Source of the DNA: Kiritimatiellia bacterium
Lineage (GTDB): Bacteria; Verrucomicrobiota; Kiritimatiellia; CAIVKH01
Direction: 5' to 3'
Length of the DNA stretch: 64,000 nt
NCBI GenBank assembly: GCA_035327305.1
Contig: DAOLDL010000001.1
Location: 85,561-149,560, forward strand
Part shown: positions 54,862 to 58,146 of the stretch, one piece after another
Position numbering within the stretch: the first letter of the stretch is position 1
Layout: each line of letters opens with the position of its first letter
Translations under genes and position numbers: made by a program
Notes under the pieces: generated by a model
Database searches by the model: none
Told to the model about the DNA's origin: nothing
Seen by the model: only the letters and a program-made list of their open reading frames with translations

Positions 54862-57800
54862 ATGAGTGACAGATCGATGCTATTTCGGGGCGGCATTTTG
54901 TTGTTGGTTGTAATGGGTGGAAGTTTCAATCTTTCACCGGCGCTAGCCGATCCACATACCATTTTCGGCGGAGTAGTGGTCATTGAAGTCGAATCCTTTC
55001 ACACCAATATTTCGCCCCGAGGCGCTCATTCGTGGGTTTTCACCAACAGCATCAGCTCCTACAGCGGAAACGGCTACATGGAAGCAATGCCCAATAACGA
55101 TGCGATCATTCAAACCAATCTTTCCGCAAACAGCCCGGAGTTGCGTTACGACGTTCTTTTCAGAAGTAATATGATTCATCATGTATGGGTCAGGGGATGG
55201 GCAAATTCCGGCGCAGACGACTCCATACATTTTGGTGTAAGCAGTTCACCAAATCTGGCAACGCCTTTGACATGGCCCGCGACCGGTGAATGGTACTGGA
55301 CAAATCTACATCATGCGACATCCGGTCAAGTTACCATGATGCCGGGAGCGACCGGCATTGTTTCGTGCAGTATCTGGATGCGCGAGGATGGCGCAAGAAT
55401 AGATCGTTTTGTACTGACGACCAATGCGGGTTTCCGTCCGCGCAAAGGCAACGCATGGCATATTCCACCCAATCAACAACCGTTGGGGCAACATGCCATG
55501 CGCACTCCATTTATGGCCATATTCACCAATACGCCCGTGACAATATTCAGTGGAAGTCAATTTCAAGGCGCTGGGAATCCTGGAAATCAATTGCAAGTCG
55601 GCAGTACAATATTCTACAGGTCATCGACCAGCACGGTGTGGAAATCGGTTGCCATGACATTTCACAGTGAAAGCGGGAATGACAAATTTTACTCCGGAGT
55701 GATTCCGCCCGGTGAGTTCAACGAAAATGATCATGTTGATTACTACATTCAAGTTCCCTTCAGTGATTTTCTTCCGACGTATTTGTACACAGCGGGAGGA
55801 GTGGCGCAGTCCACGGAATTCGAGGAAGTCGCAAGAGCCAATCCATACCGTTTCAAGGTATTGCCGATGCCTGATGCCGGTTATTCCTCCCCTCCGGATT
55901 GGCGGGACATTAACATTTACCAGATTTTTACGGATCGTTTTTATGATGGCGATCCGTCAAACAACAACAGTCACCCGGAGTCGCCATACAACCCCGCCGT
56001 AAGCAACCGCATTCATGGCGGTGATTTCCGTGGAATTGAGAAAAAGCTGGATTACATAAAAGCGCTTGGAGCAAACGCAATTTGGATCAAACCGATTCAT
56101 TTGAATGCGGTTCACTCCGCTTATCATGGATATGGAGCCCAGGATTTTTATCAGTTGAATCCGAATCTTGGAACCATGGCGGACTTAACCAGCATGGTGG
56201 CGGCGGCTCATGCCCGGGATATTCGCGTTATTCTTGATATCGTATGCAATCATCAGGGGCGGCGTATTTACAGTACGGATCCCGGATGGCCTACGTATAA
56301 TGCATCCGGATACAATCTTGCCTGGACCAACGAAACAGCCTATCCGACGCCATTTAATTCGCTGACGAATTTTCACAATTTCGGGCGAATTGGTAATTTC
56401 GATGATCCAAATCAGCTTGTATTGGGTGCGCTTAGCGGCCTTGACGATCTCAAAACCGAGACACATTACGTGCGCACCAACATGGTTGAAATATTCAAAT
56501 ACTGGATTCAGATGGCGGATTTTGACGGCTTTCGTATCGATACGGTCAAACATGTGGAAATTGGATTCTGGCGTTTCTTCAACAATGAGATCCGTTTGTT
56601 CGCCAAAGCCATGGGAAAAACCAATTTCATCCAATTTGGCGAAGTGTTTCATTCAGCGGAAAGCACGGTCGGATATTATACCGGAACACAATCCGGCGGC
56701 GCCTATGCGAACGATACGGTTCTGAATTTCCCGCTATATGAAAGGATGAACAGCGTATTCGGCAATGCATCGGGGAACACCAAACAGATTGAAGATCATT
56801 ACACCGCCATTCCCCCCAATTTTCATCCTGACTCGCACATGCGATTGATCAACTTTATCGACAACCATGACGTCATTCGCTTCATGCATTCCAGCAAGGC
56901 GAATAACAATACCAACAAGCTGGCTCTCGCGCTTTCCTTTCTGTACACATCACGAGGAATTCCATGTCTGTATTATGGGACGGAGCAAAACTTCAACGGG
57001 GGCAATGATCCGGGCAATCGTGAAGATATGTTCCACGGTCAGTACGAGCAGGGACCATCGCTGGGAGACAATTACAACATGTCGGGCGGATCATTTTTGC
57101 ATGTGGCAAAGATGAATAACTTCCGGCGGTTGTATCCATCGTTGTTGCGTGGACAACATTTGAACCGTTGGAACACACCTGACGGACCGGGAATATTTTC
57201 CTATGCCCGACGTCAGGATGGACAGGAAATACTTGTGATCCTGAATACGGCATCCGGCTTGCGATCACTTACGAACCGTGCATCGTTTTATGCGCCTGGT
57301 ACGGAGATGGTGAATTTACTAAACACCAATGAAATCATCACGGTCAATGCGATGACCAACACACCGGTGATACACGTGCCGGCATTTTCCGCAAAAATGT
57401 TTATCGCGAGAAATCAGTGGTTGCCACTCGATCCGTTGGTTCAAGCATTTTTACCCGGTCATGATTCGACCGGCCATTCCGTGACCAGTCCGGTAACGCT
57501 TCATTTCAGCAAACCCATGAATACCAATTTGACGGCTGGAGCATTTTCAATACAACCGCCGGTTATGGGGCGAATCGAATGGTCAAACTCCGGTACGACG
57601 CTGACCTTTACCCCGGAAGGAGCGAGTCGATTTTCCGGTGAAACGACATACACCGTGAATGTGTATGAAGCGGCGGCGGACATTGTAGATGGACTGAACT
57701 TCTACGCTCCGTTCGAAGCGAAGTTCAAAACCGAGGCAATTGCCGATAGCGATAATGACGGTATACCAGACTGGTGGATGATCGAGAAATTTGGTGCGGC

Positions 57801-58146
57801 CACCGGCATCGAAGGGAATAACACGCTTTACTGGCAGGATGCCGATGGAGATGGTGTGACGAATCTCGAAGAATTTATTGCCGGCACCAATCCAAATGAC
57901 ACAAATTCCTACCTTCGGATCACCAAAATCGACGCCATAAATGATAATAGCGGTTTGCGCGTTGAATTTCTCGGACAGTGGGGTAGGGCCTATAGCCTGG
58001 AAAGTACCACCAATTTACAGCATGAGGGCGCCGATTGGTCGACAAACGGAATTCCGCAGATGGGAATTCAGCAAATAATGGAATTCATTGAAGAATCCGA
58101 CAATCCGACCCGAATGTTCCGCTTAAAAGTTGCGCCTGGACTATAG
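54862..58146 (+). CDS. Secreted multidomain GH13 alpha-amylase (CBM-like + Ig-like + GH13 + Big_5 + conserved C-terminal module)
   Basis: IYQIFTDRF.DGD, GGDFRG..KLDYIK.LG, YHGY, LDIVCNH, GFRIDTVKH (D), FGEV (E), FIDNHD, YYGTEQ; F.KPMN Big_5; signal peptide. Start uncertain (54850-54877). Confidence 0.9.
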   Translation: MSDRSMLFRGGILLLVVMGGSFNLSPALADPHTIFGGVVVIEVESFHTNISPRGAHSWVFTNSISSYSGNGYMEAMPNNDAIIQTNLSANSPELRYDVLFRSNMIHHVWVRGWANSGADDSIHFGVSSSPNLATPLTWPATGEWYWTNLHHATSGQVTMMPGATGIVSCSIWMREDGARIDRFVLTTNAGFRPRKGNAWHIPPNQQPLGQHAMRTPFMAIFTNTPVTIFSGSQFQGAGNPGNQLQVGSTIFYRSSTSTVWKSVAMTFHSESGNDKFYSGVIPPGEFNENDHVDYYIQVPFSDFLPTYLYTAGGVAQSTEFEEVARANPYRFKVLPMPDAGYSSPPDWRDINIYQIFTDRFYDGDPSNNNSHPESPYNPAVSNRIHGGDFRGIEKKLDYIKALGANAIWIKPIHLNAVHSAYHGYGAQDFYQLNPNLGTMADLTSMVAAAHARDIRVILDIVCNHQGRRIYSTDPGWPTYNASGYNLAWTNETAYPTPFNSLTNFHNFGRIGNFDDPNQLVLGALSGLDDLKTETHYVRTNMVEIFKYWIQMADFDGFRIDTVKHVEIGFWRFFNNEIRLFAKAMGKTNFIQFGEVFHSAESTVGYYTGTQSGGAYANDTVLNFPLYERMNSVFGNASGNTKQIEDHYTAIPPNFHPDSHMRLINFIDNHDVIRFMHSSKANNNTNKLALALSFLYTSRGIPCLYYGTEQNFNGGNDPGNREDMFHGQYEQGPSLGDNYNMSGGSFLHVAKMNNFRRLYPSLLRGQHLNRWNTPDGPGIFSYARRQDGQEILVILNTASGLRSLTNRASFYAPGTEMVNLLNTNEIITVNAMTNTPVIHVPAFSAKMFIARNQWLPLDPLVQAFLPGHDSTGHSVTSPVTLHFSKPMNTNLTAGAFSIQPPVMGRIEWSNSGTTLTFTPEGASRFSGETTYTVNVYEAAADIVDGLNFYAPFEAKFKTEAIADSDNDGIPDWWMIEKFGAATGIEGNNTLYWQDADGDGVTNLEEFIAGTNPNDTNSYLRITKIDAINDNSGLRVEFLGQWGRAYSLESTTNLQHEGADWSTNGIPQMGIQQIMEFIEESDNPTRMFRLKVAPGL

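Follow-up and report, generated by a model that had tools for sequence, protein, structure and literature searches.

Excess of the Thr-Asn dipeptide in a predicted secreted GH13 enzyme and in other large surface proteins of a Kiritimatiellia bacterium, and its possible meaning as a modification sequon

The window analyzed here, a stretch of 64,000 nucleotides from a Kiritimatiellia bacterium, contains a gene at 54862-58146 whose product is best explained, from its sequence and its structural model, as a secreted, tail-tagged GH13 alpha-amylase. A second GH13 protein with the same C-terminal tail, hereafter the sibling, is encoded elsewhere in the window. The relevant features are as follows:

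22743..26723, - strand: sibling (1326 aa), of CBM48-GH13 architecture and branching/debranching type, ending in the shared tail
53950..54768, - strand: divergent AraC-family regulator (Pfam HTH_18 and HTH_AraC)
54862..58146, + strand: gene for the predicted secreted, multidomain GH13 alpha-amylase-type enzyme (1094 aa by translation)
54862..54948, + strand: signal peptide (MSDRSMLFRGGILLLVVMGGSFNLSPALA / DP), as read from the sequence
54955..55446, + strand: N-terminal jelly-roll, a GH115_C-like (CBM-like) domain, residues ~32-195, with 5 TN (Pfam PF17829, AF2)
55537..55857, + strand: Ig-like beta-sandwich, residues ~226-332 (AF2 strands 226-318, pLDDT >90)
55921..57000, + strand: GH13 catalytic (beta/alpha)8 domain, residues 354-713 (PF00128)
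57154..57408, + strand: GH13 domain C beta-sandwich, residues ~765-849 (AF2 strands 765-849; weak Malt_amylase_C match)
57433..57732, + strand: Big_5 bacterial Ig-like domain, residues 858-957 (Pfam PF13205, E 9e-11)
57745..57909, + strand: tail part 1, two TSP3-type Ca-binding loops (DSDNDGIPDWW ... DADGDGVTNLEEFIAGTNP; PF18884)
57910..58143, + strand: tail part 2, a C-terminal seven-strand Fn3/Ig-like beta-sandwich ending in F-R-L-K-V (AF2 pLDDT 84)

The start codon of the GH13 gene is uncertain given a database twin, P0004, that is 100% identical and is called 38 codons longer; a start at 54862 would yield a canonical signal peptide. The AF2 model of the enzyme has a pLDDT of 88, with values <50 at residues 1-27. 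Judging by its position, the AraC-family regulator probably controls the amylase gene.

Profile, catalytic residues and modeled fold all place the protein in the GH13 alpha-amylase family. The PF00128 match (residues 354-713) scores 192.7 bits against a cut-off of 22, and conserved regions II, III and IV carry the nucleophile Asp, the acid/base Glu and the transition-state Asp; these residues, D560 (GFRIDTVKH), E594 (GEV) and D670 (NHD), do not vary across an alignment of 54 homologues. Foldseek searches with the model gave E values of 1e-34 and TM scores of 0.90 both to the Anoxybacillus alpha-amylase 5A2A and to the Geobacillus GTA 4E2O. Domains A, B and C superpose on those enzymes and on TAKA-amylase with TM scores of 0.84-0.90 at 27-29% identity, and the catalytic Asp-Glu-Asp is conserved. 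The present enzyme differs from those solved structures in its additional GH115_C-like jelly roll, Ig-like domain, Big_5 domain and TSP3/Fn3-like tail; to our knowledge, no such C-terminal tails occur in solved Anoxybacillus/Geobacillus-type GH13 enzymes. At the N-terminus, the CBM-like jelly-roll matches Pfam GH115_C (PF17829; 25.8 bits, cut-off 24.1) and is all-beta in the AF2 model, and the Ig-like domain corresponds to a second modeled beta-sandwich at residues 226-332. The N-terminal 306 aa returned no match in a PDB sequence search.

The tail module is common to 48-62 otherwise unrelated secreted proteins of this genome. Its first part matches the bacterial TSP3 repeat (PF18884) at 25.7 bits when the tail is searched alone (cut-off 25) and at 19.2 bits within the full protein, and the DxDxDGxxNxxE Ca-binding pattern is invariant across 26 aligned paralogous tails of the genome. 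The second part includes a lineage-typical TTNL motif: the motif is T-T-N-L in TN-rich lineages and S-T-D-L in TN-poor ones, and its TN column is occupied in 17 of 45 TN-rich tails (as T-N-L) versus none of 21 TN-poor tails. As a small C-terminal module on dozens of otherwise unrelated secreted proteins, the tail is reminiscent of the T9SS CTD (Por_Secre_tail) and PEP-CTERM. Its position suggests a sorting role, and its beta-sandwich resembles the T9SS CTD fold type, yet no NCBIfam or Pfam match to known C-terminal sorting domains (T9SS CTD, PEP-CTERM) was obtained, and a fold search returned generic Fn3/Ig matches only, all with E > 0.03. A known sorting domain or fold was therefore rejected as an identity for the tail. 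We know of no T9SS described in the phylum Verrucomicrobiota.

An exact count gave 20 TN and 9 NT dipeptides in the 1094 aa of the GH13 enzyme, in agreement with an earlier note on this DNA (20 and 9 in ~1095 aa), and every context listed there is present (HTNI, FTNS, QTNL, WTNL, TTNA, WTNE, LTNF, RTNM, KTNF, LTNR, MTNT, DTNS, TTNL and STNG). The TN residues are at positions 48, 61, 85, 147, 187, 222, 489, 502, 539, 587, 684, 804, 822, 832, 888, 1000, 1009, 1014, 1050 and 1061, the first base of each codon pair being 54862 + 3 x (residue - 1). The number of TN expected from the protein's own composition (T = 78, 7.1%; N = 92, 8.4%) is 6.56; none of 20,000 residue shuffles reached 20 TN, and the Poisson P is 1.8e-5. 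TN is the most deviant of the 400 dipeptides (z = 5.25; next SG, 3.05), and the TN-vs-NT asymmetry is weak when taken alone (binomial P = 0.03). By region, 6 TN were observed versus 1.6 expected in the N-terminal domains, 8 versus 3.2 in the GH13 core and 5 versus 0.9 in the tail, so the claim that all domains are enriched holds for these regions and fails for the Big_5 domain (1 versus 0.7). The sibling (22743-26723, - strand) has 23 TN and 4 NT with 6.4 TN expected. Because sequence similarity between the two proteins is confined to the tail (97 aa at 49% identity) and to a GH13 block of 71 aa, they constitute independent scaffolds, and the suggestion that the enrichment arose separately in two little-related proteins is upheld.

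The excess extends well beyond these two enzymes. In the 95 large surface proteins of the genome (114 kaa), TN occurs 1150 times versus 564 expected (O/E 2.04, z = 24.7), far exceeding every other contiguous or gapped pair. Tail-bearing proteins (62) are the most enriched recognizable class, with a TN O/E of ~2.11-2.30, compared with 1.31 in other signal-peptide proteins, ~0.95-0.96 in cytoplasmic proteins, 1.0 in polytopic proteins, about 0.8-1.0 in small periplasmic/signal-peptide proteins and 0.85 in signal-peptide proteins <400 aa. Lipoproteins (about 1.05) and prepilins/pilins (about 1.06) are not enriched, and both were dropped as further substrates. Values of 1.9-2.0 are also reached by giant proteins that end in another C-terminal module and by several large proteins lacking a recognized tail. 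Related dipeptides stay near baseline: SN is at 1.05 and TD at 1.08 in tail-bearing proteins, NT is at 0.87-0.93 in the tail and signal-peptide classes, and TQ in surface proteins is, unlike TN, also at baseline. At the nucleotide level, ACNAAY occurs in surface genes at 10.2 per 1000 codons in frame versus 1.7 and 0.9 out of frame, and at 1.6 in frame in cytoplasmic genes. Since the excess is confined to frame 0 and to surface genes, the TN signal is not a DNA or codon-level motif; ACC is favored ahead of AAY in all genes, and cytoplasmic genes show no different choice of codons at TN. TN sites have uncharged or hydrophobic residues at -2 and -1; two positions past the Asn, the preference is for a hydrophobic residue and against K, R, D and E. 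Charged residues are depleted around TN in the surface set. In the AF2 model of the GH13 enzyme, the sites directly follow the end of a strand, form a helix N-cap or lie within a loop. The TN excess is thus a genome-wide property of large surface proteins that is selected at the amino-acid level.

Orthologues of the enzyme are bimodal in TN content, with 91 rich (mean 18 TN) and 16 poor (mean 4.9 TN) sequences and O/E values of either 2-3 or 0.3-1.1. TN sites of P0001 are kept as TN in 36% of cases in rich orthologues (average dipeptide identity 30%) and in 14% in poor ones (average 28%), which show TS, PS, TA or SN at TN columns. Of 203 alignment columns with TN somewhere, only 10 have it in at least half of the sequences. 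TN positions therefore turn over among orthologues while TN density is kept. Nearly all sampled Kiritimatiellia families have a TN O/E of 1.4-3.1, and three other families of the phylum (f20, f65 and f68) are TN-rich at 1.9-2.3; family f5 is TN-neutral (pooled 30 versus 25.2 expected). The same tail occurs at a TN O/E of 0.5-1.1 in f23, f24, f25, f22, f21, f18, f61 and Chthoniobacterales, and TD is at about 1.1 in TN-poor lineages. Because tail-less surface proteins are enriched and tail-bearing proteins of these lineages are TN-poor, the excess goes with lineage and surface or extracellular location, and not with the tail module.

We tentatively propose, at slightly under an even chance, that Thr-Asn is a sequon for an undescribed envelope modification, probably O-glycosylation. 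Large surface and extracellular proteins of most Kiritimatiellia and a few other Verrucomicrobiota families would gain and keep T-N at exposed edges of secondary-structure elements, most likely in response to an envelope protein-modifying enzyme that recognizes T-N as a minimal sequon. Probably, a periplasmic GT-C transferase would O-glycosylate the Thr with a sugar taken from a lipid carrier, and selection, for instance for protease shielding or solubility, may favor a dense array of sequons on proteins destined for the exterior of the cell. We infer, rather than observe, the existence of the modification, its glycan nature, Thr as its acceptor and the enzyme responsible. Several points count against the proposal. 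Small periplasmic proteins, pilins and lipoproteins are unenriched, so a general periplasmic system would account for the pattern only together with selection confined to extracellular proteins. Strand ends and helix caps often carry T and N, which makes a structural preference conceivable, and use of Thr without Ser as acceptor is unusual for O-glycosyltransferases. Finally, no candidate enzyme tracks the TN trait.

The genome encodes at least 4 TMEM260-like (PF11028) proteins combining GT-C and TPR regions. PF11028 was found in 14 of 14 TN-rich genomes scanned for the family and, outside the class Kiritimatiellia, is missing from 16 of 19 TN-poor genomes, absence in G001, G009, G018, G021, G075 and G099 being based on a protein search with o759 instead of a family scan; none was found in f23, f24, f25, f18 or Chthoniobacterales genomes. 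The association is significant by genome (Fisher P = 0.013) and not by lineage (P = 0.12). TMEM260-like genes also occur in TN-poor G008, G005 and G244 and in TN-neutral f5, so the trait cannot be predicted from the family. One such gene, o759 (TMEM260-like plus TPR), adjoins two tail-protein genes; in a first sample, all 20 Kiritimatiellia/G004 genomes had it and 7 TN-poor ones did not. With wider sampling it was rejected as the TN determinant: TN-rich G393, G331 and G352 have only weak paralogue matches, an orthologue exists in f5, and homologues exist in G008, G005 and G244. A GT-C group (o2350/o1016/o319) was discarded for its absence from TN-rich f4, f7, f15 and G004, and a PMT_2-like group (o496/o150/o497) for its sporadic distribution. 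Human TMEM260 is a proven protein O-mannosyltransferase (PMC10214176). Like TMTC1-4 and PMT, the eukaryotic enzyme uses a lipid-linked sugar to modify Thr/Ser within the beta-sandwich domains that secreted proteins carry (PMC10214176); no sequence motif is known for these enzymes, and the bacterial homologues are putative transferases.

The only known sequence-motif O-glycosylation is that of Bacteroidota, whose transferase is still unknown according to a 2025 review (PMC12871550). The Bacteroidota motif, D-(S/T)-(A/I/L/V/M/T) (PMC12871550), and TN are both short, restricted to non-cytoplasmic proteins and present at many sites per protein, and each is a phylum- or class-wide trait with a hydrophobic residue preferred downstream. 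They differ in that TN uses Thr only, has no Asp and is enriched in large surface proteins, not in periplasmic ones generally; moreover, Bacteroidota glycosylation is proven by mass spectrometry, and the TN signal is known here from sequences. The motif D[ST][AILVMT] is depleted in the surface set (O/E 0.75; 0.91 in cytoplasmic proteins), which excludes a Bacteroidota-type motif as the source of the signal. The N-X-S/T sequon systems (PglB/AglB, HMW1C) likewise leave a sequon-density signature in exported and surface proteins. In the surface set, however, N-X-S/T is at 1.03 and D/E-X-N-X-S/T is not enriched either; STT3 (PF02516) is absent from this genome (G000) and from 27 of 29 genomes, GT41 (PF13844) from G000 and 28 of 29, and both are missing from nearly all TN-rich genomes as well. 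Classical N-glycosylation, whether through PglB/AglB STT3 or HMW1C-type GT41 enzymes, was ruled out on these grounds.

Among explanations other than a sequon, structural or physico-chemical selection without any modification is unlikely. T-N would then be a preferred strand-terminating or helix-capping pair of extracellular proteins for which other lineages might use T-D, T-S or P-S, and its benefit in the habitat might lie in a lower number of negative charges, in solubility or in resistance to proteases. The location of TN sites at strand C-ends, helix N-caps and loops agrees with this, as do the TS, PS, TA or SN replacements in TN-poor orthologues, the S-T-D-L counterpart of T-T-N-L in the tail and the scarcity of charged residues around TN. 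However, a general shift from D to N, or in capping, would not lead one to expect a single dipeptide at z = 24.7 with SN, TD, TQ and NT at baseline, and a general D-to-N replacement was ruled out by the lack of TD enrichment in TN-poor lineages and of SN enrichment in rich ones. Turnover of positions with kept density is typical of sequons and not of structural caps, and beta-rich periplasmic proteins of the same cell would be left without an explanation for their missing excess. Recognition of T-N by something other than a glycosyltransferase, such as an enzyme of hydroxylation, methylation or phosphoryl/acyl transfer, or a factor particular to the lineage (chaperone, secretion or anchoring) that binds exposed T-N patches of cargo, seems to us quite improbable. 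The same enrichment data apply to it, a factor tied to an export route would agree with the confinement of the excess to large secreted cargo, and no glycosyltransferase tracks the trait cleanly; yet no candidate factor was found, at least 20 dispersed sites per protein in every domain are unusual for a binding or sorting signal, and the C-terminal modules would already hold sorting information.

The earlier note had linked TN accumulation to the C-terminal module itself; such a link might run, for example, through tail-dependent export that hands cargo to a modifying enzyme. Tail-bearing proteins are indeed the largest and most enriched class of this genome (2.11-2.30 in 62 proteins versus 1.31), and module-bearing proteins do exceed other exported proteins (2.13 versus 0.8-1.0 in small signal-peptide proteins), the comparison on which that idea could have failed. 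The module is nevertheless neither necessary, since giant proteins with a different module and large tail-less proteins are equally enriched (1.9-2.0), nor sufficient, since tail-bearing proteins of at least seven other Verrucomicrobiota families are at 0.5-1.1; a causal role for it is largely refuted and highly unlikely. Chance or composition, through a T/N-rich protein, a bias in mutation or codon pairs, or a domain family that recurs, has a vanishingly small probability. The enzyme is rich in both residues, and ACC is favored before AAY in all genes, but the expectation already incorporates the protein's own composition, the observed count was reached in none of the 20,000 shuffles, the ACNAAY excess is limited to the reading frame and to surface genes, the two GH13 proteins are unrelated but for the tail, and orthologues of similar composition in other lineages lack the excess, which refutes an artefact.

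Returning to T-N as a sequon, an extended form of the proposal, which we regard as rather doubtful, is that it marks a second motif-directed general protein O-glycosylation system in bacteria, found in most Kiritimatiellia and several other lineages, with initiation by periplasmic TMEM260/PMT-like GT-C enzymes and dense coating of secreted enzymes and adhesins. Full-text literature searches turned up neither a described Thr-Asn motif nor a function for bacterial DUF2723. PVC bacteria rank among the main degraders of polysaccharides in the sea and the gut. If true, a second motif-directed system with a two-residue sequon would change the reading of PVC surface proteomes, offer a possible reason for problems that the secreted CAZymes of these bacteria may show on expression in E. 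coli, and provide new short tags for glyco-engineering. Even without a modification, a surface- and clade-restricted dipeptide excess of this strength (z = 24.7) is a clean computable phenotype, usable for phylogenetic profiling of the responsible gene and for prediction of extracellular localization in TN-rich genomes. A TMEM260-like gene was present in 1 of 14 control genomes, that of Bacteroides thetaiotaomicron, and given this gene the family might also supply the missing initiating transferase of Bacteroidota O-glycosylation.

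The amylase examined here (P0001) is a secreted GH13 protein whose gene and product have the following features:

54862-58146, +, GH13 amylase gene, 1094-aa product
N-terminus, +, canonical signal peptide, read from the sequence
after the signal peptide, +, jelly-roll matching Pfam GH115_C
after the jelly-roll, +, Ig-like sandwich (AF2 model, pLDDT 88)
catalytic region, +, complete GH13 domain (PF00128, 192.7 bits)
after the catalytic domain, +, domain C, then a Big_5 Ig-like domain
C-terminus, tail of 135 aa: two TSP3-type calcium loops, then a seven-strand Fn3/Ig-like sandwich ending in F-R-L-K-V

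The Asp-Glu-Asp catalytic residues were invariant in an alignment of 54 homologues, and Anoxybacillus and Geobacillus alpha-amylases were structural matches at up to TM 0.90. The frame stays open for 51 codons upstream (54709-54861), and P0004, a twin from the database, is annotated as 1132 aa with its start 38 codons earlier; since the residues preceding 54862 are not signal-like, 54862 is the more plausible start. In NCBIfam, the TSP3 part of the tail (residues 970-1020) matched the Akkermansia "Amuc_1099 family pilus-like system protein" at a level below threshold (E 5e-8; 32.9 bits, cut-off 50). In a Chthoniobacterales MAG (L001:1-3357 and 3412-7488), the GH115_C-like jelly-roll and Ig module is also fused to an unrelated neighboring protein that carries the same tail and by eye resembles a beta-propeller dehydrogenase with CxxCH haem motifs; thus, the module moves between enzymes. 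Upstream of the amylase gene is a divergent AraC-family regulator, and the remaining neighbors encode purine catabolism, glycogen synthase and RNase R; inspection of this neighborhood found no genes for glycosylation. After the purine-catabolism genes for allantoinase, allantoicase and OHCU decarboxylase (49223-53575) comes one for a DUF6986 protein of 481 aa (E 3e-179) that may perform an unassigned step of the pathway.

The hand count of 20 Thr-Asn (TN) and 9 NT dipeptides in the amylase proved exact. Its own composition predicts 6.56 TN; none of 20,000 residue shuffles reached 20 (Poisson P = 1.8e-5), and with a z of 5.25 TN deviated more than any other of the 400 dipeptides. The earlier note placed the excess in all domains, which holds for the N-terminal domains (6 observed versus 1.6 expected), the GH13 core (8 versus 3.2) and the tail (5 versus 0.9), but not for the Big_5 domain (1 versus 0.7). 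A sibling GH13 protein (22743-26723, -) has 23 TN versus 6.4 expected; all it has in common with the amylase is the tail plus a GH13 block of 71 aa.

In the 3.27-Mb genome holding the window (G000), 2494 ORFs were called and sorted into classes.

TN observed/expected (O/E) by protein class
TSP3 + sandwich tail, 39 proteins: 2.11
Sandwich-only tail, 14 proteins: 2.04
Signal peptide, >1000 aa, no recognized tail: 1.92
Signal peptide, <400 aa: 0.85
Lipobox proteins: 1.05
Prepilins: 1.06
Polytopic membrane proteins: 1.01
Cytoplasmic proteins: 0.95

NT stayed at 0.86-1.01 in every class, and tail-bearing proteins had SN at 1.05 and TD at 1.08. The pooled surface set (95 proteins, 114 kaa) contained 1150 TN versus 564 expected (z = 24.7), with SG and DxD as runners-up (z about 11); neither N-X-S/T (O/E 1.03) nor the Bacteroidota motif described below (0.75) was enriched in this set. 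A mutational or DNA-motif origin was excluded because enrichment of the hexamer ACNAAY was confined to surface genes and, within them, to frame 0 (10.2 per 1000 codons, versus 1.7 and 0.9 out of frame and 1.6 in frame in cytoplasmic genes). The TN excess extends across the genome and acts on the amino-acid sequence. Around surface-set TN sites, T, V and S were favored and D, E, K and H avoided at position -2; W, F, G and V were favored at -1; two residues past the Asn, V, W, L, I, F, P and T were favored and K, R, D and E fell to 0.24-0.42.

A second, distinct C-terminal module was observed on giant proteins of G000 (3848-5418 aa, plus one 499-aa fragment), all outside the window:

C24:14902-31158
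C31:101-14440
C31:14800-26346
C137:2531-4030

Its pattern is approximately DEIRIL..GGxGSL..PKxRIRL....EPDDAVIIVRRN..WTN....PTKxFxP. These proteins are as TN-rich as tail-bearing ones (e.g. 104 TN versus 36 expected), as are several proteins lacking any recognized tail. For another genome of the genus, an open frame of 7424 aa with the tail (G110:C22:55342-55659) is reported to contain one in-frame TAA, which might reflect readthrough, a pseudogene or an error in sequencing.

The tail profile (A1) was searched against 121 genomes of the phylum Verrucomicrobiota and the tail was found in 61; TN was surveyed in about 90 genes for tail-bearing proteins, drawn from 46 genomes. Kiritimatiellia families f1, f4, f6, f7, f9, f12-f17 and f48 were TN-rich (O/E 1.4-3.1), as were f20, f65 and f68 outside the class (1.9-2.3). 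Kiritimatiellia family f5 was neutral (pooled TN 30 versus 25.2), and f18, f21, f22, f23 (many genomes), f24, f25, f61 and one Chthoniobacterales genome were neutral or poor (0.5-1.1). The same tail occurs in both groups. At a conserved motif within it, T-N-L is present in 17 of the 45 rich tails but never in the 21 poor ones, where TD, TS or DD is found instead. The idea that TN builds up convergently in unrelated scaffolds is supported. The causal role given to the C-terminal module is not, as in G000 giant proteins with another module and several proteins lacking a recognized tail are equally enriched, and in other lineages the module occurs without the excess. The TN excess follows lineage combined with a surface or extracellular position, and the tail is not its determinant.

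Among 120 amylase homologues, TN O/E was bimodal, with about 90 at 1.8-3.6 and sixteen at 0.3-1.15; among the sixteen are three proteins from named Chthoniobacterales and one from a named member of the Kiritimatiellia. TN-rich orthologues kept 36% of P0001 TN sites as TN (average dipeptide identity 30%) and TN-poor orthologues 14% (28%), the sites in the latter being replaced by TS, PS, TA or PA. In 203 alignment columns at least one rich orthologue has TN, but in only 10 do at least half of the rich orthologues have it, and TN per rich orthologue holds near 18. Positions turn over while density is kept, as sequons behave in a glycan shield.

The pattern thus has four features: an exact dipeptide; restriction to exported, mainly extracellular, proteins; clade specificity; and positional turnover with kept density. 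A modification sequon favored by positive selection would be expected to give such a pattern. Its nearest known parallel is D-(S/T)-(A/I/L/V/M/T) in Bacteroidota, which a 2025 review describes as the only known motif-directed bacterial O-glycosylation and whose transferase is unknown (PMC12871550). The best explanation, at somewhat less than even confidence, is that T-N is read as an undescribed sequon by an envelope modification, probably O-glycosylation. Thr-only specificity would be unusual for such a system, and the lack of TN excess in periplasmic proteins counts against it unless selection is extracellular-only or modification is coupled to the export route. A serious rival, though one we judge rather unlikely, is a purely structural preference for T-N as a strand-end or helix-cap pair in TN-rich lineages; in the AF2 model of the amylase, the 20 TN sites lie just past strand ends, at helix N-caps or in loops. 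If the sequon is real, it would be a previously undescribed modification motif of a known kind of system; our literature search found no description of a Thr-Asn motif or of bacterial DUF2723 function.

STT3 and GT41 were absent in the enzyme search. GT-C proteins that carry long C-terminal domains are numerous in G000; among them are four TMEM260-like (PF11028) proteins with TPR repeats (o759, o2350, o1016 and o319) and four PMT_2-like proteins. At least eight are of roughly 950-1050 aa with long TPR or beta-rich C-terminal domains, an unusually large set for 3.3 Mb. GT-C proteins lie at:

C13:18179-21313, -
C116:166-3315
C21:20652-23798
C4:30356-33208
C7:21187-29539
C2:80521-83454
C44:4214-7090

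The o759 gene adjoins two tail-protein genes and matched the TN trait perfectly in a first sampling. It is class-wide (131 of 133 Kiritimatiellia genomes), and in the rest of the phylum its type is seldom found (9 of ~268 genomes). On wider sampling it was rejected as the determinant, being present in TN-neutral f5, having homologues in three TN-poor genomes (G008, G005 and G244) and matching weakly in three TN-rich ones (G393, G331 and G352). The o2350 and o496 groups did not track the trait either. PF11028 as a family had at least one copy in all 14 TN-rich genomes scanned and was absent from sixteen TN-poor genomes outside the class (for six, by the o759 protein search rather than a PF11028 scan), yet it was present in three other TN-poor genomes outside the class and in f5. 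With Fisher P values of 0.013 by genome and 0.12 by lineage, a family "necessary but not sufficient" for TN excess is a lead and not a finding. Only one of 14 well-known control genomes, Bacteroides thetaiotaomicron, carries a TMEM260-like (PF11028) gene, which is intriguing beside the unidentified initiating transferase of Bacteroidota.
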